Positions 32,954 through 56,895 of a stretch of 64,000 bases of DNA are shown one piece after another. The notes below the pieces were generated by a model. That model was not told the DNA's origin. It made no database searches and worked only from the letters and a program-made list of their open reading frames with translations. Made by a program: the position numbers and the translations under genes. The stretch is taken from assembly GCA_032986305.1 (NCBI GenBank), contig GCA_032986305.1_3672.1; one strand, 5' to 3'. Every line of letters begins with the position of its first letter. Position 1 is the stretch's first letter. The stretch is from a phage.

Positions 32954-33062
32954 AATGTTTTCCTCTCTTCTGGTTGTTGTGTGGGCACTTTTGCCCCTTC
33001 AAGATAAATGTTACCTAACCACCTGGCAGATGTCAACTGTTTTTATAGTTTTTATATAACGG

Positions 33063-34048: not shown

Positions 34049-34118
34049 TCTGTCATGTTGGCGGCATCGCTGCCGCCTTATGTATTATGCTTTGTAAGAT
34101 GGCTGTTGTCAAACTATT

Positions 34119-34298
34119 TTAACGATAATCATCGTACGCTTTATTAACCTGGCGGATATAACATTCAAAAGCCAGATCAATGGATTTATATTCACGGGTA
34201 TATTCACCATAGGAAACTACATACATTTCTATAGCTTCCTCATATGCGAGGAGAATAGAATCCAAGCCTACGATCTCAGTCTTTGCAATAATAGCCAT
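34119..34298 (-). CDS. hypothetical protein (59 aa)
   Basis: SD GAGGATAAAA; own promoter TTGACA-16-TAATAT and 5' UTR hairpin GGGGC-aacaa-GCCCC. Confidence 0.35.
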   Translation of the reverse strand: MAIIAKTEIVGLDSILLAYEEAIEMYVVSYGEYTREYKSIDLAFECYIRQVNKAYDDYR

Positions 34299-34373
34299 GA
34301 TTTTTTATCCTCTTTGTGGTTGGTGGGGCTTGTTGCCCCCTTGATTTATATATTACAGTCTTATATGGTCATG

Positions 34374-34607
34374 TCAACTATTTTCAAAAAATTTTTCTGC
34401 TGTGATATTCTTCCCGGTAGGGTTCGCTACTTTCAAAATTTTATCATGCACTGGACGCCCAAAAGAATAAGCGCCGTACACAGTAAACCAATAATCGCCG
34501 TCAGGTTGTACTATTACTGCCGCATATGGTACGCCTTTTTCGTTTTTGCTGACAGAATAGATCACGTTGCCATTAATAGCCTCGGCGCGTTTAATTTGTT
34601 CCATCAT
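34374..34607 (-). CDS. hypothetical protein
   Basis: 77-aa ORF. Confidence 0.4.
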   Translation of the reverse strand: MMEQIKRAEAINGNVIYSVSKNEKGVPYAAVIVQPDGDYWFTVYGAYSFGRPVHDKILKVANPTGKNITAEKFFENS

Positions 34608-34662: not shown

Positions 34663-34947
34663 TTATTTATTGATAGCGTGCAGCGGGAAAGGTACGCCAG
34701 GTTGATAGATAACTTTTACAACCTCATCAGGGCAAAAGAAGTTGCAGAACTCACCGCAATAGGCCTCATCCTCTTTCAACTCTTCATCAACATACTCAAA
34801 AAAGTAGTCGATGCTTGGATAATCTTGCCCTGGGTTATAGTCAACCATTGTCAGGACTAGTTCAAGATCGTTGCGTAGGATATGCATACCCGCTTTTAAG
34901 TATTTTGCTTCCATTTCTACTACATCGCCAACGGTAACAATAGCCAT
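34663..34947 (-). CDS. hypothetical acidic protein
   Basis: SD GGAG; 94 aa. Confidence 0.45.
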   Translation of the reverse strand: MAIVTVGDVVEMEAKYLKAGMHILRNDLELVLTMVDYNPGQDYPSIDYFFEYVDEELKEDEAYCGEFCNFFCPDEVVKVIYQPGVPFPLHAINK

Positions 34948-35172
34948 GATTTTAACTCCTATCTATCCGGTTAATGATTGGGGGCCGCCCCCCTGACACG
35001 TCCTATTATCCATATTGTAGGGCTTGATGCAAGTACTTCTTTAAAAATTTTTTAAGCGCCTTGGGGGCCGCTGTAGCGCCAAAATAATAAAGGCCATGCA
35101 ACCGCATAGCCTTTATGTGATTATATCGCTGCAGGCCCTGCCATGGGCCTTATTTTGCATCATTTGCTGGAA

Positions 35173-35493
35173 TTATTCAGAGAAAACATCGTTCACAATA
35201 GCGATCACAATGCCGCCCACCTTGTCACGGTCAACAATGCACAAATCACCATAGATCATGTGGTAGTCTGGATGATCTTTCACGGAATAGTCAATGAGTG
35301 TTTTCTTATCGTCCAGCTTCGTAACTTCCATTCTCATAACGATATGAGAATCATCAAAGGCATTATTGCGAAAAGTCATAGCCTGACCGCCAGGGCACCC
35401 GGTGATCTCCACTTCCACACCGTCTACGATCTGACCATCAAAGAAATAAAGATTATTGGCGGGTATAAACATGATCATTACTCCTTTTTGCAC
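35173..35493 (-). CDS. hypothetical protein
   Basis: SD AAAGGAG; preceded by palindromic element. Confidence 0.45.
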   Translation of the reverse strand: MQKGVMIMFIPANNLYFFDGQIVDGVEVEITGCPGGQAMTFRNNAFDDSHIVMRMEVTKLDDKKTLIDYSVKDHPDYHMIYGDLCIVDRDKVGGIVIAIVNDVFSE

Positions 35494-35514
35494 TGATTAT
35501 TTTAACAGGGTTTA

Positions 35515-35567
35515 AATTTACTTTATTGATGGCCTTGGAGTCAAGGCCATCTAAAAATAAATTTTAC
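35515..35567. repeat. about 50-bp repeated intergenic element with 24-bp perfect palindrome GATGGCCTTGGAGTCAAGGCCATC (copy 1)
   Basis: Near-identical copies at 39235-39287 and 39827-39876. Confidence 0.6.
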
Positions 35568-35764
35568 AGGCCTACAATCTCTTTGATTCGTTTTACTGCT
35601 GCCTCAGCGCCTTGAGGGTAGAAATTATGATAACCAATCACGCGGGTAATACTGATCGCCGCTTGGTGGTCCTCGTAGTCGCCTTTGAATATTTCTTGAC
35701 CATCAACCAGCACAGCAATTTTTTCTTCTTTTTTGAAGTTAATAACGCGGATATTGTTGCTCAT
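35564..35764 (-). CDS. hypothetical protein
   Basis: SD AAAGGAGAAA. Confidence 0.4.
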   Translation of the reverse strand: MSNNIRVINFKKEEKIAVLVDGQEIFKGDYEDHQAAISITRVIGYHNFYPQGAEAAVKRIKEIVGL

Positions 35765-35859
35765 TTTGTTTCTCCTTTGGAACTTTGTCTGTGTGGTGGG
35801 GAGTGTCTCCCCGTTGATTGTTATTATCCATATTCAGGACCGGATTGCAACACCCCGGA

Positions 35860-35905
35860 AGAAAAATTTTTTTGAAAAAAGTTAGGCCCCCAGGGATCGG
35901 GGGCC
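35860..35905 (-). terminator. rho-independent terminator (minus strand)
   Basis: GGCCCCC-agggatc-GGGGGCC; U-rich on minus strand. Confidence 0.5.
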
Positions 35906-35909
35906 GTTA

Positions 35910-36029
35910 TCAGGTGCGTACAGCGATAAAATACATCCCTACGCCTAACAATATTTCAAGGGCGATAATCTCCAGCCATACCATAACACGGCGCGCCTTA
36001 TCGGTGCGGGGCTTATCCTTGGGTGTCAT
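35910..36029 (-). CDS. small membrane peptide (39 aa)
   Basis: Hydrophobic C-terminal half; followed by terminator. Confidence 0.3.
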   Translation of the reverse strand: MTPKDKPRTDKARRVMVWLEIIALEILLGVGMYFIAVRT

Positions 36030-36049
36030 CGTCTCCCCCTTTCCTCCTG

Positions 36050-36271
36050 TTAGTAGTGACGTGGTTTACAATGGTCCCCAGGAGTACTATCGCCACGCAC
36101 ATTACGAGAAAAATTATTTCTTCCGTTGTTCGGTCCATTGTTATAAAACCTCTCAAGATCAGGTCTAAAAGTAAATCTTTCGTTATTGAATCCGTCACGC
36201 CAGGCGGCTGGCTTCAAATCTTCACTAAATGGATTAATTAACGTGGCATTATTTAAACGGTTGGCCCACAT
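36050..36271 (-). CDS. hypothetical Asn-rich protein
   Basis: SD GAGAGG before ATG 36271. Confidence 0.3.
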   Translation of the reverse strand: MWANRLNNATLINPFSEDLKPAAWRDGFNNERFTFRPDLERFYNNGPNNGRNNFSRNVRGDSTPGDHCKPRHY

Positions 36272-36620
36272 ATTTTCTATTCCTCTCAAATAGGCGATCC
36301 GCCTCAGTTAAACATATCTCATGGGCGTGATCTCTGGTTTTAGCTTCATCGAAAACCTGTTGTGCAAGGCTGCAACGTAGGGAGACTGGAAGATCACTAT
36401 AATAGGCGTTGACAAACGTTTGAGCGTCGTACAGGTCTGAAAATACTTTACCCTTTCTATTATTTCCCTTGTCAACAATTGCAAGGATAACCAATACAAT
36501 AGTTGCAACCACCCCCAGGAAAATAGATATAATAAACCATAAAAAGGCGGATCTCCCCATCTTGCCAGCGATCCAGGCGTTAAACAAGGCAACCAATATA
36601 GCCAAAATAATAAATTCCAT
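36249..36620 (-). CDS. membrane protein
   Basis: SD AAGAGG before ATG 36620; two TM helices. Confidence 0.4.
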   Translation of the reverse strand: MEFIILAILVALFNAWIAGKMGRSAFLWFIISIFLGVVATIVLVILAIVDKGNNRKGKVFSDLYDAQTFVNAYYSDLPVSLRCSLAQQVFDEAKTRDHAHEICLTEADRLFERNRKYVGQPFK

Positions 36621-36684
36621 TCTATGTACCTCTTTTACAGTTCTGATTAACAATAAGGCGGCAAATATGCCGCCTGTTACCTGA

Positions 36685-37065
36685 TTAAAAATTATCGCCG
36701 TAAATCTTTCCGCTTTCTACCCATACCACCACGCGAGGCATACTATCCCACACGTCTTGTTTTAGATTGAGCGCGTGCAATTCTTCGGTGGTGCTCATAC
36801 CGGGCACGGGCTGATTGTATACTGCAAAACGACCGCCTGCATAATCATAGGCCAGGGTTAAATCACACTGGATCATCTTTTTGATCATGGCATTAAGCAT
36901 GGCGTTAGCCGCATATTGATCACGTTTTAAAGGCAACTCTTTGATTAGTTTGCGATAGTTTTCGATATGGTCGCACACTGTTTCACGAGGAAGATCTTTC
37001 ATATCCTCGCGAAAGGTAACCAGGTTAAACATAACGGTGTCAATGGCCTTGGTAGTGTTTTTCAT
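36685..37065 (-). CDS. hypothetical protein
   Basis: SD GAGAGGA before ATG 37065. Confidence 0.45.
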   Translation of the reverse strand: MKNTTKAIDTVMFNLVTFREDMKDLPRETVCDHIENYRKLIKELPLKRDQYAANAMLNAMIKKMIQCDLTLAYDYAGGRFAVYNQPVPGMSTTEELHALNLKQDVWDSMPRVVVWVESGKIYGDNF

Positions 37066-37154
37066 AATGTTATCCTCTCTGTTTTGTGTTGGGCAAGTCA
37101 TCTCGCCCCTTGAGTTTTAATATAGCAGGTTTTTAGATTATTGCAACACTTTAT

Positions 37155-37778
37155 TTATGAAAAACTCATCTCCCCATATTCATCCACATCAAACCGCCAA
37201 TCATTGGCTTCAATAAGGCCGATCAGGTTTTCGGTAGTAAACTGTTCAAGATAGGCCCCCTCCAGGTCTACGTAAACCTTGCGGGATAGCTCCCGTACCG
37301 TCTCGGTGATCAGCTCTTCCAGCTCTTCAACTTTATCCTCTTGCTTGGTGGTCAGGTCTAGCCAATTAGTATCGATGCACCCTCCTATTGTGTTTTCGTG
37401 GTGATAATGGCTAAACGGGATACGTTCAACACTAGCTGATAACTCGCCATCGTGCATTGTGCCGAACAAGTGACGAATTGATCGGAACTTGGTCAGGGCC
37501 TTGACTTTACGCAAGAATTTTTCTAAATCCACGTTTTCAGCACTGATTGACGCGCCATCGCCTTGACACCAAAAGCCGGACCAACGTACTTCGGTATCTT
37601 CAAGGCCGTACTCTGGAAAGACATATTCTTTATAGTGTTCAATTACGCTTTCTGCAAAAAAATTATCCCCGCTGTGTTCTTCTCTTTCGCGTACCATTTC
37701 AATGGCTTTTTCTTTTTGTTCGTCGGTCAGCACATCGAAAGATAAATTGTAACCTGTGGTAATGTTAACGGTGGTCAT
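37155..37778 (-). CDS. hypothetical acidic protein
   Basis: 207 aa, strongly acidic; SD AGGAGAAAAT. Confidence 0.45.
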   Translation of the reverse strand: MTTVNITTGYNLSFDVLTDEQKEKAIEMVREREEHSGDNFFAESVIEHYKEYVFPEYGLEDTEVRWSGFWCQGDGASISAENVDLEKFLRKVKALTKFRSIRHLFGTMHDGELSASVERIPFSHYHHENTIGGCIDTNWLDLTTKQEDKVEELEELITETVRELSRKVYVDLEGAYLEQFTTENLIGLIEANDWRFDVDEYGEMSFS

Positions 37779-37799
37779 GATATTTTCTCCTGTTTTCTT

Positions 37800-37864
37800 T
37801 GTTAGTGGCGGGAAGTTTTCCCGCCTGTGTGTTTAATTATACTTATTGAGATTTACTTGTCAAC
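37800..37864 (-). promoter_or_regulatory. promoter (TTGACA-16-TATAAT) plus 5' UTR hairpin GGCGGGAA/TTCCCGCC cassette
   Basis: Minus-strand consensus hexamers at 37858-37863 and 37836-37841; palindrome 37807-37825. Confidence 0.55.
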
Positions 37865-38113
37865 ACTATTTTTTAAATTATTGTGGCGCAAAATGTTTAA
37901 AATCTCTTCAACGTCATCAACACGGCGGCAATTTTTAAACGCTACCAATTGCCCCATGATTTTAATCACTGGGCGGCCTTGCCAGTGCCCTTGGAGAAAG
38001 CGCGCCTTGACTTTATCGGTGGAACTATCACGCCACCAAATAGCCTTGTTGTTGCAGTAGTAAAAATTATTCAGGATAACATCAACTTTATCAAAATTTT
38101 TTAATTTACGCAT
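37853..38113 (-). CDS. hypothetical protein
   Basis: SD AAGGAG. Confidence 0.45.
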   Translation of the reverse strand: MRKLKNFDKVDVILNNFYYCNNKAIWWRDSSTDKVKARFLQGHWQGRPVIKIMGQLVAFKNCRRVDDVEEILNILRHNNLKNSVDK

Positions 38114-38292
38114 GGCGTTTACTCCTTCCTCTCTTTGATGTGGTTAGTATAGCTAACCTGTTGACGATGTCAATGATATTTTTAACGCCATAAAACGGCC
38201 CTGGGCGATGTTTTCAGGTTAAAGGGGGCGATTGCATAGGTGGGGGCCTTTTTGGCGCTTACAGGGCCAACCAGGGGCGCTATTCGTATGAT

Positions 38293-38323
38293 AGAAATAA
38301 AAAGCCCCGCACAATGGCGGGGC
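38293..38323 (-). terminator. rho-independent terminator (minus strand)
   Basis: GCCCCGC-acaatg-GCGGGGC then U-run on minus strand. Confidence 0.55.
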
Positions 38324-38331
38324 GTTGGTTG

Positions 38332-38529
38332 TTATTTGTCTTTATGGCGGTATCGTTCTGCCTGTCGTTCACGTTCCAAAAGTAGGCCGGGCAATTTACG
38401 ATCATAATGATTACGCCAGATCTTCCCAAACCTTTTTGGCTTATTCAGTTTATTGTTACGCTGGCGGCGTTCTGGCAGCTCTTCGGAATCATGAGGGCGC
38501 TTTACAATTTTCTCGAAATTAATTTTCAT
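38332..38529 (-). CDS. small basic protein
   Basis: Arg/Lys-rich 65 aa; terminator immediately downstream. Confidence 0.4.
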   Translation of the reverse strand: MKINFEKIVKRPHDSEELPERRQRNNKLNKPKRFGKIWRNHYDRKLPGLLLERERQAERYRHKDK

Positions 38530-38873
38530 ATATTCCCCCCCTTGCTAACTTCAATATTGGCCTGAATAGCTCGGATACGGCGCTTTATAACTTCCTGATC
38601 TGTGTGGTCGTATCCCCAAAAGTCTACAATTTTTGCGCCCCCCGCCTCCAGGCGGTATAGTGTTTCCTGCATTTTGTAAGCCGGGATCGGGCGCGGTGTT
38701 ACTTGGTCACCTTCTTTATTTTTATACTTTATAATATAATCTTCGTTATCGTTGAATGCCCAAAATGGATATTCTGCAAGGGCGGTACTTCCTCTTTCCT
38801 TTTTATCCTGGATCTTATTTACAATTAAAGCCGTAGCAATAGCGCCAATAATAAAACTAGCCCCGCTAATCAT
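38526..38873 (-). CDS. membrane-anchored protein
   Basis: N-terminal TM helix. Confidence 0.45.
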   Translation of the reverse strand: MISGASFIIGAIATALIVNKIQDKKERGSTALAEYPFWAFNDNEDYIIKYKNKEGDQVTPRPIPAYKMQETLYRLEAGGAKIVDFWGYDHTDQEVIKRRIRAIQANIEVSKGGNI

Positions 38874-38949
38874 GTGTACTTTCTCCTTTCATGGTGTTAA
38901 TAAATTATCTTTATAGATGGCCCTGCAACCAGGACCACCGAAAAAATAA

Positions 38950-39195
38950 CTATTTCACAATGCCTACAAAACAGATCCCGCCTTCACCTATGTAAGCAAT
39001 ATCGGTAACTTTATAATTTGTCAAGATCTGTTTATTTAGTTCATTAATAAAATCGGTCATTGCGTTGGTGTAGTTGTCTTCCATATCTAAGGCATAATCC
39101 CAGGCGTAAACCTTTTTACGTCCGAAGCCTTTTACCATGATACGGGCGCTTTTGGTGTTGGTGGGCGCATAATATTTTGTGATTAGTGCTGCCAT
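38950..39195 (-). CDS. hypothetical protein
   Basis: SD GAGGAG. Confidence 0.45.
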   Translation of the reverse strand: MAALITKYYAPTNTKSARIMVKGFGRKKVYAWDYALDMEDNYTNAMTDFINELNKQILTNYKVTDIAYIGEGGICFVGIVK

Positions 39196-39234
39196 GGTTT
39201 TAACTCCTCATTAGTTCAGTGTTAACAGTGTAAA

Positions 39235-39287
39235 GTTTACTTTATTGATGGCCCTGGAGTCAAGGCCATCTAAAAATAAATTTTACT
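39235..39287. repeat. repeated palindromic intergenic element (copy 2)
   Basis: gatggccctggagtcaaggccatc with one mismatch in stem. Confidence 0.6.
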
Positions 39288-39594
39288 CGTTTTCTTCCAG
39301 CTCTGTCTGCAATTCCTGGTATTCTTCATCGTCCTCAATATCCAGGCTGTCGATGTAGTCGCTAAATCCGCAGCGGTAAGCGATAGGATCTAACTCCTTG
39401 AGGATACGCGACGGAAGAAAAGAAATGTTTCCGATCATAATTTCGCCGTAGATCTCGTCTAGCCATTCGTCATAGTTTTCGTCGTACTTGTCCTCGTCGA
39501 TTTCAAAGTTATCGATCTTGTTCTCAAGGTCTGCGATCTGTTTTTTCAGCGCGGCGATCTGCATAGCTTTTTCTGCGGCGGTCATAGTAGTCAT
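39283..39594 (-). CDS. hypothetical acidic protein
   Basis: SD AAAAGGAGAAA; Asp/Glu-rich. Confidence 0.45.
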   Translation of the reverse strand: MTTMTAAEKAMQIAALKKQIADLENKIDNFEIDEDKYDENYDEWLDEIYGEIMIGNISFLPSRILKELDPIAYRCGFSDYIDSLDIEDDEEYQELQTELEENE

Positions 39595-39675
39595 GGTGTT
39601 TTCTCCTTTTGTGTGTTCTGGGAAGTTTTCCCGTTTACGTGTTTAAGTATACCGATTTGGGTTAGCTTGTCAATT
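39595..39675 (-). promoter_or_regulatory. promoter (TTGACA-16-TATACT) plus 5' UTR hairpin cassette
   Basis: Same architecture as 37800-37864. Confidence 0.5.
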
Positions 39676-39793
39676 AAAAATTTAAGAAAAATTTTGCAAA
39701 ACTGTTGGCGCTACTCATTAACATTTGCGCCAGGATGTAACCGACAACGCAAACGATAATAGTTACCTTTGTGTATTGGCGTGTAGTGCTCAT
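39674..39793 (-). CDS. small membrane peptide (39 aa)
   Basis: SD GGGGG; hydrophobic. Confidence 0.3.
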   Translation of the reverse strand: MSTTRQYTKVTIIVCVVGYILAQMLMSSANSFAKFFLNF

Positions 39794-39826
39794 CTTAAAG
39801 CCCCCTTTTCGCTTAGTTGAGACTAG

Positions 39827-39876
39827 TTTACTTTATTGATGGCCCTGGAGTCAAGGCCATCTAAAAATAAACTTAA
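39827..39876. repeat. repeated palindromic intergenic element (copy 3)
   Basis: Identical core to copy 2. Confidence 0.6.
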
Positions 39877-40277
39877 TAAGTTTTCAGTACTTTACCGTCC
39901 AACCTGTCAAGCTGGATCTCAATAGCTGCAGAAAACCTATTGTACACCACGTCGCCCATAGAATCCAACCAATCTATGACGTTATATACCTGCTCTTTAT
40001 TCTTACAGGTCCGGATCCGTTTCATGATGTAAGCCGGATCAATATTGGTACTCTCGTTGGTGTTCCCCTGTACCTGGTTTGCCGTATTAGTTACATCTTT
40101 AATGGCCTTTACCACCACCTGGAATGGCTTTAAGGTGCCTTTTGCGTTCATCTCACGCGCTTTTGCGGCGCGGTTGTTATATGTTACACAACGGCGGCAA
40201 ATATTGATCAAATGCATGTCAATAATTTTTTCATCGTTTGCCAACTCGTTCATGATGCGGCGTACGTTCTTATTCAT
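39873..40277 (-). CDS. hypothetical protein
   Basis: 134 aa; own promoter/hairpin cassette at 40278-40352. Confidence 0.45.
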   Translation of the reverse strand: MNKNVRRIMNELANDEKIIDMHLINICRRCVTYNNRAAKAREMNAKGTLKPFQVVVKAIKDVTNTANQVQGNTNESTNIDPAYIMKRIRTCKNKEQVYNVIDWLDSMGDVVYNRFSAAIEIQLDRLDGKVLKTY

Positions 40278-40352
40278 GGTCTTTTTCCTTTATGTTGGCG
40301 GGAAACATTCCCGCCTTTTGTGCCCAGTTTACTTGAATTTTGCAGCGTGTCA
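40278..40352 (-). promoter_or_regulatory. promoter (TTGACA-16-TAAACT) plus 5' UTR hairpin GGCGGGAA/TTCCCGCC
   Basis: Palindrome 40296-40314, SD AAGGAAAAAG. Confidence 0.5.
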
Positions 40353-40359
40353 ACAATTT

Positions 40360-41282: not shown

Positions 41283-41440
41283 TTTTGTACCTCCTCTTCA
41301 ATTGTTACCTATCCTATAGCATAGGCCCACCAGGTTTGCAAGCCTTCATTCTCTCCTACCTGGTCAGTTAGGTCCTACCAGGCTGGCCCCGCCAGGTTGC
41401 AGCGGTTAGCGCATCAGGTTAGAAAATTTTTTTGAAAAGT

Positions 41441-41580
41441 GTTGACAGCGGCCCAGCCAGGTGGCACAATATACCTATCGAAAGGACGGCAGGCACCGGT
41501 GACGGGGGAGACAACCACCGGGGATGGGCGCTGCATAAAATGAGAACGGTTATCATTATCCTTTAAAAATTTATGCAAAA
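41441..41580 (+). ncRNA. candidate small RNA unit 1 (promoter TTGACA-17-CACAAT plus structured GC-rich transcript)
   Basis: No ORF; contains conserved element GGGAGACAACCACCGGGG and GAGAACGGTTATCATT. Confidence 0.35.
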
Positions 41581-41589
41581 ATCCTTGCT

Positions 41590-41720
41590 TTCTTTGTCCT
41601 GTGTGATACTATAATAACAAGCCGGGGCAACAGGGGCCGGGAGACAATCACCGGGCCTGCCCGTTATTCTGCAAACGAGAATGATTATCATTCAAAATTC
41701 TAAATGAGAACTCCTCGCAT
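41590..41720 (+). ncRNA. candidate small RNA unit 2 (promoter TTGCTT-16-TACTAT plus structured transcript)
   Basis: Paralogous to unit 1: GGGAGACAATCACCGGG ... GAGAATGATTATCATTC (AU hairpin). Confidence 0.35.
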
Positions 41721-41814
41721 TTAATAAATTTAATTAGCATGCTAATTACCCTCCGTAACAATTTCCTATAAAACAGTATCCCATAAAATATTCCCATACA
41801 GAAATTTTAAAAAT

Positions 41815-41990
41815 CCATTTCTGAAAACGAAAAATCGATTTCGTCCCCAAAAATTTCAGGTCGAGATCCGGAACGATTTCTAGAAAATCCGATTTAGAAA
41901 ACGAAAAACAGATCGAGTACTGAGAAATTTATCGAGAAAAATTTTCAGAAAATTCAATCTTTGAAACGAAAAACAGATCGAGTACCTGGA
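41815..41990. repeat. tandem direct repeats (about 66-73 bp period) containing GAAAACGAAAAACAGATCGAGTAC
   Basis: Three copies at about 41824, 41897, 41963. Confidence 0.55.
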
Positions 41991-42298
41991 AAGCTGCACT
42001 GCAACTTCAAGATAGTGGTTAGATTATTACCATAGAAGGTCAAGGGTAAGTGGAGGAAGTTCTAGTAGAAGGATGTGAGCATGTGTGGGAAATCTGTAAT
42101 GGTGGCCTGAAATATGGTGCAAACGATAGGATGAGTGATTCAGCTTGTCGCGCCTACTCTGAAAAAATCCATTTTAGTTTTCGATCCATTTTCTGATTTT
42201 CTAAGGATTTTAAAATATCCGGCCCGGTGAAATATCAAAAGGAGGAAATCCATTTTAGAAATCCCCCTTATACTTGATATGCCAGGAATTTTCAAGTA

Positions 42299-42628
42299 TC
42301 AGCTGTCTTTGTTTTTAGGTTTGTACATGCGCAGAGGTATGGTCTTTGTAACATTCCATTTCCTCAACCCTTCCCAGCTCCAGTTGTGGGCGTGATACCC
42401 GGTTATGCATGCACTGCTGGCGTGATCATAAGCATAAGAGAACGCTATGTGCACCAGGTGGGGCCAGTCCTTCCACGGCTGTGGACCGTAAGCCTTTCTC
42501 CAACACCGACACAAACTAATTGTCTCAAGAATAGGGAGAATAACAATTCCATATACCACCACCAGAATGGTCAGTGCAATGATTGTCAGGAACACATACC
42601 CTGCAGTTGAAATGATGATCTCTGTCAT
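42299..42628 (-). CDS. membrane protein
   Basis: N-terminal TM helices. Confidence 0.4.
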   Translation of the reverse strand: MTEIIISTAGYVFLTIIALTILVVVYGIVILPILETISLCRCWRKAYGPQPWKDWPHLVHIAFSYAYDHASSACITGYHAHNWSWEGLRKWNVTKTIPLRMYKPKNKDS

Positions 42629-45792: not shown

Positions 45793-45824
45793 ATACAAAA
45801 ATGCCCCACCCTTTCGGGCAGGGC
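45793..45824 (-). terminator. rho-independent terminator (9-bp stem, GAAA loop), duplicated at 56862-56895
   Basis: GCCCTGCCC-GAAA-GGGTGGGGC then UUUUUGU on minus strand. Confidence 0.55.
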
Positions 45825-56861: not shown

Positions 56862-56895
56862 CTAATGCAAAAAGCCCCACCCTTTCGGGCAGGGC
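56862..56895 (-). terminator. rho-independent terminator (second copy of 22-bp hairpin)
   Basis: Identical GCCCCACCCTTTCGGGCAGGGC to 45803-45824. Confidence 0.55.

Follow-up and report, generated by a model that had tools for sequence, protein, structure and literature searches.

An intercistronic RNA hairpin repeated in the early operons of rV5-like phages, a possible processing or stability signal

What role is played by a short palindromic element that recurs between the early genes of a phage? The question is raised by a 64,000-nucleotide stretch of phage DNA (GenBank assembly GCA_032986305.1, contig GCA_032986305.1_3672.1; the whole stretch is called the window below), in which the region concerned is 92-96% identical to rV5-like phages; the window is from a Vequintavirus (rV5/FV3-like), a phage of E. 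coli. An earlier note on this DNA had described an element of about 50 bp that carries a perfect palindrome, stands three times between minus-strand genes, and could be either a terminator hairpin lacking a strong U-tract or a promoter-overlapping operator. The element is real, lineage-restricted and previously unannotated, and it belongs to the intercistronic structured RNAs, a familiar kind. Very probably, selection acts on the structure that it forms as sense-strand RNA. A processing or stability signal is the likeliest function of this hairpin, and the statement as a whole, including the mechanism proposed below, is given slightly less than an even chance.

Three near-identical copies of a 45-nt element are present in the window, starting no more than 2 nt from the positions first noted (35515, 39235 and 39827). 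They are referred to here as the canonical copies E1, E2 and E3 (Table 1). For their 24-nt core, GATGGCCTTGGAGTCAAGGCCATC, the number of matches expected by chance is 0 (100 shuffles). An independent repeat search returned all three together with a diverged fourth copy, Edeg (38903-38963, 62% identical), which had been suspected near 38905. A covariance model of the family likewise found exactly four sense-strand copies, scoring 68.8-81.8 bits, while the next best match in the window scored 13.4 bits (E 4.5). The motif search that the earlier note had envisaged for the full genome was run on the 64-kb window, where it gave no copies beyond these four. Every copy starts 0-2 nt past a minus-strand stop codon and ends 14-30 nt ahead of the next Shine-Dalgarno (SD) sequence and ATG, and the siting between a gene stop and the next SD, as originally described, thus holds for all of them. 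The perfect 10-bp inverted repeat fared less well, being present among the window copies in E1 only. The plus strand of the other two canonical copies, and of almost every copy in relatives, has GATGGCCCTG/CAAGGCCATC, with one C·A mismatch. On the transcribed minus strand, where the element reads UUUAUUUUUA-GAUGGCCUUG-ACNY-CAGGGCCAUC-AAUAAAGUAAA, this consensus mismatch is a U·G or G·U wobble.

The sense RNA of all four copies adopts the same 57-nt fold. A 4-nt loop closes a 10-bp GC-rich upper stem, below which come an internal loop of 2x3 nt and a lower stem. This lower stem has 10 bp or more, with 11-13 bp in E1 and E2; the total helix measures about 20-23 bp. The lower stem is mostly A-U and takes in both the bases just past the stop codon and a hexamer resembling a -10 promoter element. 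The minimum free energy (MFE) of the minus strand lies between -22.4 and -25.0 kcal/mol (z -6.1 to -7.7), the upper stem alone giving -16.3 to -16.6 kcal/mol, whereas the plus strand folds less stably (-8.1 to -19.8 kcal/mol, z -1.9 to -5.0). A scan of the window for other long hairpins gave none in this size class. The hairpin put forward in the earlier note is therefore present, in a larger, two-stemmed form of 57 nt and about 20 bp, and on the sense strand. Its internal loop is 2x3 in all 51 distinct copies of the alignment described below (UA/NAU in canonical copies, UC/UAU in Edeg). In one relative outside that alignment (the contig behind loci L023, L024 and L040), the 3' side of the internal loop has 4 nt.

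The case for selection on this structure comes from comparison. The region was gathered from about 30 relatives and 51 distinct copies were aligned; a second set of 104 model-aligned copies, 56 of them distinct, gives the same result. Among the 51 copies, 98.2% of the paired cells of the minus-strand structure hold a pair, a value reached by none of 500 shuffles, and control structures in which the partner was slid by 1-3 columns are 35-56% paired. In the lower stem, both partners have changed at four pairs; the covariation score is 0.173, while the slid structures score no more than 0.051. Pairing also depends on the strand that is read: it falls from 98.2% on the minus strand to 87.0% on the plus strand for all copies, and from 98.6% to 78.2% for the diverged family. 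The plus strand pairs worse because G·U accounts for 12% of the pairs, among them a lower-stem U·G and the one that breaks the palindrome. The lower-stem wobble is found in 51 of 51 copies of the first set and in 55 of the 56 distinct copies of the larger one, in which one added copy has U-A.

Individual pairs illustrate how complementarity is kept while bases change. Pairs 9-49 and 10-48 are U-A and A-U in the canonical copies and are flipped to A-U and U-A in Edeg, and position 9-49 runs through the series A-U, G·U and G-C. Pair 7-51 appears as U-A, U·G and C-G among Edeg orthologues, along with two unpaired C·A haplotypes. Pair 6-52, which joins the base after the stop codon to the fifth base of TAAAYT, is GC in 23 copies, AU in 14, GU in 8 and another combination in 6; it is G-C in most E3 copies, and A-U in E3 of rV5_ev147, in E1 and in phage KKE7M. 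All three differences between the inner arm of Edeg and that of the canonical copies are pair-preserving transitions. One divergent genome carries two 1-nt insertions, one in the hairpin loop and one in the internal loop, and none elsewhere in the hairpin. In MAFFT alignments of orthologues, variable columns make up 5-9% of the canonical 45-nt elements (the two free loop bases excluded), against 28-47% of the downstream leaders and 21-24% (E1, E3) or 59% (E2) of the upstream coding flanks, the E2 value being inflated by a 30-nt indel. The contrast is weaker for Edeg, with 19% in the element, 34% in the upstream flank and 25% in the downstream leader. A separate observation concerns the leader of about 30 nt between E1 and the start of the ORF177/178 homologue (window 35472-35510). 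Comparison of the orthologous positions in six relatives showed that it occurs in two unrelated versions among close relatives, …atcagtgcaaaaaggagtaatgatcATG and …ccacgcagttaacaaggagtgatagacATG, with both sides conserved.

The set of three canonical copies and one diverged copy is common to about 120 sequenced Vequintavirus relatives and confined to them. A 71-nt query around E2 matched 121 phage records, all at 90% identity or more and almost always at three places per record, and phage FV3 matches E2 and its flanks at 100% identity. In rV5 numbering, the canonical copies stand at the ORF179/178, ORF192/191 and ORF194/193 junctions and the diverged copy at ORF191/190. Among 5,426 complete E. 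coli genomes, none has a match to the element. When IMG/VR and a metagenome collection were scanned for exact matches to the core pattern, the gain was a few rV5-like contigs, without any new lineage. A pattern made of the flanks only, TTTACTTTATT-N24-TAAAAATAAA, was used in IMG/VR to seek copies with other stems; it gave mostly chance matches in AT-rich giant-virus bins, and two rV5-like contigs. When the ORF192 and ORF191 homologues were used as a route to distant loci, the sole diverged locus (54% identity) was without the element. As for annotation, the rV5 GenBank record lists the sigma-70 promoters P186, P192, P195A/B and P205 and terminators nearby, with nothing at the element sites, and the element sequence is absent from the promoter and terminator table of the rV5 paper. 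In passing, a number of unannotated 'Campylobacter phage' records (MG065662, MG065672, MG065674, MG065646 and some 18 more) are 92-96% identical here to E. coli rV5-like phages. The one record opened, A147 (MG065644), is flagged UNVERIFIED, and the host assignment of these records looks doubtful.

All four copies appear to be intercistronic, lying inside two predicted early operons that have ordinary terminators at their ends (Table 1). A terminator scan gave no minus-strand terminator-like sites between 40353 and 38323 or between 35885 and 35116, and the elements are not among its 20 terminator-like sites. The element shares with intrinsic terminators a GC-rich hairpin a few nucleotides past a stop codon. 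However, terminators have a U-tract 3' of the hairpin and stand at the ends of operons, whereas the tail of the element is AAUAAAGUAAA, its U-rich run is 5' and is the pairing partner of that tail, and its position is intra-operonic. A canonical intrinsic terminator was rejected on these grounds. The seven flanking open reading frames (ORFs) fall in seven different PHROGs, all of unknown function, and gene duplication was for this reason discarded as the origin of the repeats. A Pfam search of the seven gave nothing at threshold and one sub-threshold GvpG match for the ORF192 homologue (18.6 bits, with a cut-off of 30.6).

Table 1. Positions of the repeat copies and of nearby features in the window
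Feature	Position	Strand	Remarks
E3, 57-nt hairpin	39821-39877	-	81.8 bits; MFE -25.0 kcal/mol, z -7.65 (plus strand -16.8); neighbours: ORF194 homologue (39873-40277) and 39-aa ORF193 homologue (39674-39793)
E2, 57-nt hairpin	39230-39286	-	77.8 bits; MFE -23.6 kcal/mol, z -6.12; neighbours: ORF192 homologue (39283-39594) and ORF191 homologue (38950-39195)
Edeg, diverged fourth copy, 57-nt hairpin	38899-38955	-	68.8 bits; MFE -22.4 kcal/mol (plus strand -8.1); full hairpin, no TTGAC; neighbours: ORF191 homologue and ORF190 homologue (38526-38873)
E1, 57-nt hairpin	35511-35567	-	78.4 bits; MFE -23.9 kcal/mol, z -7.69; sole perfect inner palindrome; neighbours: ORF179 homologue (35564-35764) and ORF177/178 homologue (35173-35472)
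45-nt element	35517-35561 (E1), 39236-39280 (E2), 39827-39871 (E3)		equivalent in Edeg: 38905-38949
24-nt core	35528-35551 (E1), 39247-39270 (E2), 39838-39861 (E3)		exact in E1; one mismatch each in E2 and E3
Internal loop, 3' side	about 39244-39246 (E2), 39835-39837 (E3), 35525-35527 (E1), 38913-38915 (Edeg)	-	sense positions 41-43 of the 57-nt model
-35-like TTGACT	39849-39854 (E3), 39258-39263 (E2), 35539-35544 (E1)	-	spans end of inner 5' arm and loop
-10-like hexamer	39825-39830 (E3), 39234-39239 (E2), 35515-35520 (E1)	-	TAAACT in E3 and E2, TAAATT in E1; 3' strand of lower stem
Promoter-like TTGACA-16-TAAACT	40326-40353	-	10/12 match; would start the operon ORF194-E3-ORF193-(P192)-ORF192-E2-ORF191-Edeg-ORF190-ORF189
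P192, internal promoter-like site	39646-39673	-	11/12 match; annotated promoter in rV5
Canonical intrinsic terminator	38304-38323	-	GCCCCGCC...GCGGGGC + UUUUUAUUU; ends the ORF194-ORF189 operon
Canonical terminator-like hairpin and U-tract	35087-35116	-	ends the ORF179-E1-ORF178 unit
Terminator	35885-35905	-	ends the unit upstream of ORF179

Several other features of the surroundings deserve mention in their own right. Most of the strong minus-strand early promoter-like sites (10-12/12) have a GC-rich hairpin 6-12 nt past the -10 hexamer, with no U-tract (e.g., GGCGGGAAAACTTCCCGCC). These combinations of promoter-like site and hairpin are found at 37798-37863, 39608-39673, 40297-40353, 34060-34112, 34325-34377 and about 32990-33036, two of them forming the repeat family D4. 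The primary transcript would begin with such a hairpin at its 5' end, and the hairpins may be 5' stabilising stem-loops. A 27-nt repeat at 45798-45824 and 56869-56895, which reads GCCCTGCCCGAAAGGGTGGGGC followed by a T-run on the minus strand, resembles a duplicated canonical terminator. Between the ORF176 and ORF177/178 homologues (34947-35173), the phages rV5_ev147, slur16, isim, magaca and ECP32 have an extra 351-nt gene (VOG7213), which is absent from the window, where the gap holds only the terminator hairpin at 35087-35116. Finally, about 1.1 kb of the window (around 41300-42400) lacks a convincing ORF, and dispersed repeats occur in it (family D2 at 41792-41992; motifs GGATTTT..AAAAT and TCGATCTGTTTTTCGTTT). 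The genome map of the rV5 paper has a 'non-coding' box, and this stretch may be an origin or a non-coding RNA region.

What might read such a hairpin? The features that selection maintains are the helix length of about 20-23 bp, the constant size of the internal loop and the weak A-U lower stem, and they suggest that the reader responds to the length of double-stranded RNA. RNase III of E. coli can take in about 22 bp, and its preferred cleavage sites are intergenic positions within transcripts (PMC6212723). It is proposed tentatively, and at odds somewhat below even, that the host RNase III is this reader. According to this proposal, mRNA read through just past an early-gene stop codon would fold into the hairpin of about 20 bp, and RNase III would cut it in or near the internal loop, as it does at the early-mRNA sites of T7. 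After the cut, the upstream cistron would keep the GC hairpin as a protective 3' end, while the downstream cistron would be freed. The three canonical copies may double as weak internal promoters, a function that the fourth could not have, and recombination between the near-identical direct repeats would be a by-product.

The RNase III signals of T7 early mRNA (R0.3, R0.5, R1, R1.1 and R1.3) provide the closest comparison. They are also intercistronic in early polycistronic transcripts, start at or beside the upstream stop codon, and form several copies of one consensus in the early region. Like the element, they are two-stem hairpins measuring about 20 bp, in which an asymmetric internal loop or bulge divides the lower stem from a GC-containing upper stem of 9-12 bp. 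This anatomy was reproduced when the intergenic sites R0.5, R1.1 and R1.3 were folded, the lower stem starting from the upstream stop codon in each. The Vequintavirus hairpin differs in that its lower stem is almost pure A-U, its internal loop is smaller (2x3) and its cleavage is predicted only. It also differs in having -35-like and -10-like hexamers embedded within it; the annotated promoters of T7 (E. coli B and C, phi1.1A/B, phi1.3) lie in or beside the same intergenic regions as the sites, in a comparison made by region and not by position in the hairpin.

Whatever their function, the repeats are almost certainly a substrate for recombination. E2 and E3 start 591 bp apart, and the phages ECP32, magaca and phiWec189, together with one IMG/VR contig, have a single hybrid element, flanked on the left as E2 is and on the right as E3 is, and are without the 541 bp that correspond to window 39284-39824 (ORF192 and ORF193). 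These four genomes carry different flank alleles, which suggests more than one deletion event. Exchange between phage groups has occurred as well. KKE7M, a phi92-like Justusliebigvirus of another subfamily, holds the equivalent of window 39236-39674 at 91% identity, that is, P192, ORF192 and E2, and the homology ends exactly at the edge of the element on one side and at the -35 of P192 on the other. Two more early segments are shared between KKE7M (PQ356295; 4585-4772 and 5962-6295) and the window (34117-34304 and 36699-37032), at 91% and 76% identity, and suggest that Vequintavirinae and Stephanstirmvirinae have exchanged ORFan cassettes repeatedly. A replaced gene was also considered downstream of E3 in the L040 contig and was rejected, homology there being continuous at 84%.

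This behaviour recalls the promoter-early stem-loops (PeSLs) of T4-type phages, cassettes of a stem-loop and an early promoter that delete or exchange ORFans (Arbiol et al. 2010, PMC2839356; Comeau et al. 2014, PMC4122927). PeSLs share with the element the intergenic order of stop codon, AT-rich tract with a stable stem-loop, sigma-70-like hexamers, SD and ATG. They too stand among small early ORFans in a plastic region, where direct repeats delete the intervening DNA and mark the ends of exchanged cassettes. Membership among the PeSLs is nevertheless not claimed, because Vequintavirus is not T4-like, because there are 3+1 copies within 4.4 kb instead of dozens across hyperplastic regions, and because the promoter is weak rather than near-consensus and its -35 is enclosed by the stem-loop, which in PeSLs precedes the promoter. 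The 57-nt two-stem hairpin with covariation and without a terminator-type U-tract is a further difference.

How well do other explanations account for these observations? In one alternative, which we regard as unlikely, the element is mainly a sigma-70 promoter inside the operon: transcription would start anew at the embedded hexamers (TTGAC-N18-TAAAYT) to serve the downstream ORFan, the T-rich tract would be a distal UP-like element and the hairpin a PeSL-style read-through attenuator. The promoter scan did confirm the minus-strand TTGACT-N18-TAAA(T/C)T of the earlier note in the canonical copies, and several properties of these hexamers are those of a promoter. TTGAC is invariant in all 40 distinct canonical copies, its sixth base being free and the two loop bases after its AC varying freely (ACTC, ACTT, ACAC, ACGC, ACCC), A2 and T6 of the -10-like hexamer are kept in 39 of the 40, and the pair lies 25-40 nt upstream of an SD and ATG. 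PeSLs, moreover, pair a stem-loop with an early promoter at the same intergenic position (PMC2839356, PMC4122927). Yet the hexamers match at only 9 of 12 positions, with a spacer of 18 nt, and a scan of the region at this threshold gives 28 sites where chance alone would give 20.5. A TG extension is missing, and the sequence directly upstream of the -35 is GC-rich (GATGGCC), whereas the phage's own early promoters (10-12/12) have an A-tract directly before TTGACA and spacers of 16-17 nt. In addition, Edeg has CTGG(T/C)N where the canonical copies have TTGACN, and its structure is equally conserved; one relative has a 20-nt spacer and an intact hairpin; and the -10-like hexamer of E2 in ECML-10 is TAAACG. 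A promoter also leaves the compensatory changes and the strand asymmetry unexplained. Promoter activity in the three canonical copies, weak at best, is accordingly rated as rather doubtful in its own right. Since the 5' half of the hairpin precedes any start from the embedded hexamers, the hairpin is expected only in transcripts read through from the upstream gene. The same 57 bp could serve as an RNase III-type hairpin in RNA and as an internal promoter in DNA whose transcripts are free of the hairpin, a dual coding that we find quite improbable. If it were true, upstream transcription and local initiation would be mechanistically coupled, and the unit would also be a portable linker for ORFan cassettes, from Vequintavirinae to Stephanstirmvirinae. 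The operator of the earlier note, in which a dimeric phage or host regulator binds the 24-bp dyad and occludes the overlapping promoter, is held to be very improbable: the promoter-like hexamers stand, with the modest match just given, and an operator for a symmetric dimer is disfavoured. A 10+10-bp dyad is indeed centred on the -35 and spacer at three sites in one early region of 4.4 kb, and the inner arms are almost invariant in base identity, as those of a protein site would be too. The half-sites nevertheless differ at one position in the consensus and at two in Edeg, always in the way that is compatible with G·U pairing on the sense RNA, and complementarity is kept across 57 bp while base identity in the lower stem changes. 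No DNA-binding domain was found in the seven flanking ORFs, which are unrelated ORFans, and the promoter to be controlled would be weak.

A passive hairpin, or one read by something other than RNase III, would block 3'-5' exonucleases, cause pausing or attenuation, terminate transcription in a non-canonical way or be bound by a phage RNA-binding protein. This family of explanations, to which only a small share of credence is given, draws on the same structural evidence as the RNase III proposal. The stability of the upper stem alone is typical of 3' stabilisers, and the conserved U·G wobble and the fixed size of the internal loop could be features recognised by a protein. For a passive barrier or a pause hairpin, however, the lower stem of at least 10 A-U pairs beyond the internal loop would be superfluous, yet it is maintained by compensatory substitutions. 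Intrinsic termination is disfavoured by the missing U-tract, and an RNA-binding protein by the want of a candidate among flanking ORFs that have no significant Pfam domain. It could also be argued that the repeats have no regulatory role at all and are recombination linkers, selfish repeats under gene conversion, or DNA hairpins formed on one strand during replication or recombination, an idea held to be very improbable. The E2-E3 deletion in at least four genomes and the cassette transfer with its breakpoint at the element edge fit this idea, as does the shuffled look of the loop alleles among copies. G·T pairs, for their part, are tolerated in single-stranded DNA hairpins. What this idea does not accommodate is Edeg, which is too diverged for conversion and yet keeps the whole structure through compensatory changes, or the fact that in four gene contexts, whose PHROGs are unrelated, the element always sits on the coding strand just past a stop codon; its cruciform version needs the plus-strand arm, which pairs much worse. 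The REP (repetitive extragenic palindromic) sequences and BIMEs (bacterial interspersed mosaic elements) of E. coli are repeated intercistronic palindromes as well, able to protect upstream mRNA from 3' exonucleases and known as recombination hotspots. The element differs from them in being specific to phages and in having an extended AU lower stem. A type III toxin-antitoxin repeat of the ToxI kind was dismissed, as the copies are dispersed and not in tandem; to our knowledge, the ToxI repeat bears no resemblance to the element.

The proposal of an RNase III-read processing signal has to be set against a number of observations that weigh on the other side. There is no sequence similarity between the element and the T7 intergenic sites, an Rfam scan of 33-43 kb returned sub-threshold chance matches and no family, and a literature search gave no transcript-end or cleavage data for any Vequintavirus; RNase III cleavage is predicted from the anatomy. 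The WSSW preference reported between paired cleavage sites (PMC6212723) is not evident, on our reading, in the GGCC-centred upper stem. In nine of the 51 distinct copies, the two bases of pair 7-51 do not pair. The shuffle statistics overstate independence because many of the sequences come from close relatives, and because the inner stem is nearly invariant, the covariation rests on the lower stem and on the comparison of canonical with diverged copies. Some of the apparent conservation could also stem from gene conversion between the copies. Lastly, the invariance of 'AC' in the loop is predicted by a -35 constraint and we know of no RNA rule for it, so that a function at the DNA level either coexists with the RNA role or competes with it.

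In itself, the finding is a modest one, a small, lineage-restricted RNA structure of a familiar kind. Its interest lies in the phages that carry it. The rV5-like phages are widely used in the typing of E. coli O157 and in phage-therapy collections, and their early regulation is known only from predictions of promoters and terminators. The element offers a testable handle on post-transcriptional control of early ORFan operons, and on whether these phages make use of the host RNase III as T7 does. At the same time, a deletion and an inter-subfamily transfer that both end at the element extend the shuffling of genes by regulatory cassettes, the idea developed with PeSLs, beyond T4-type phages.

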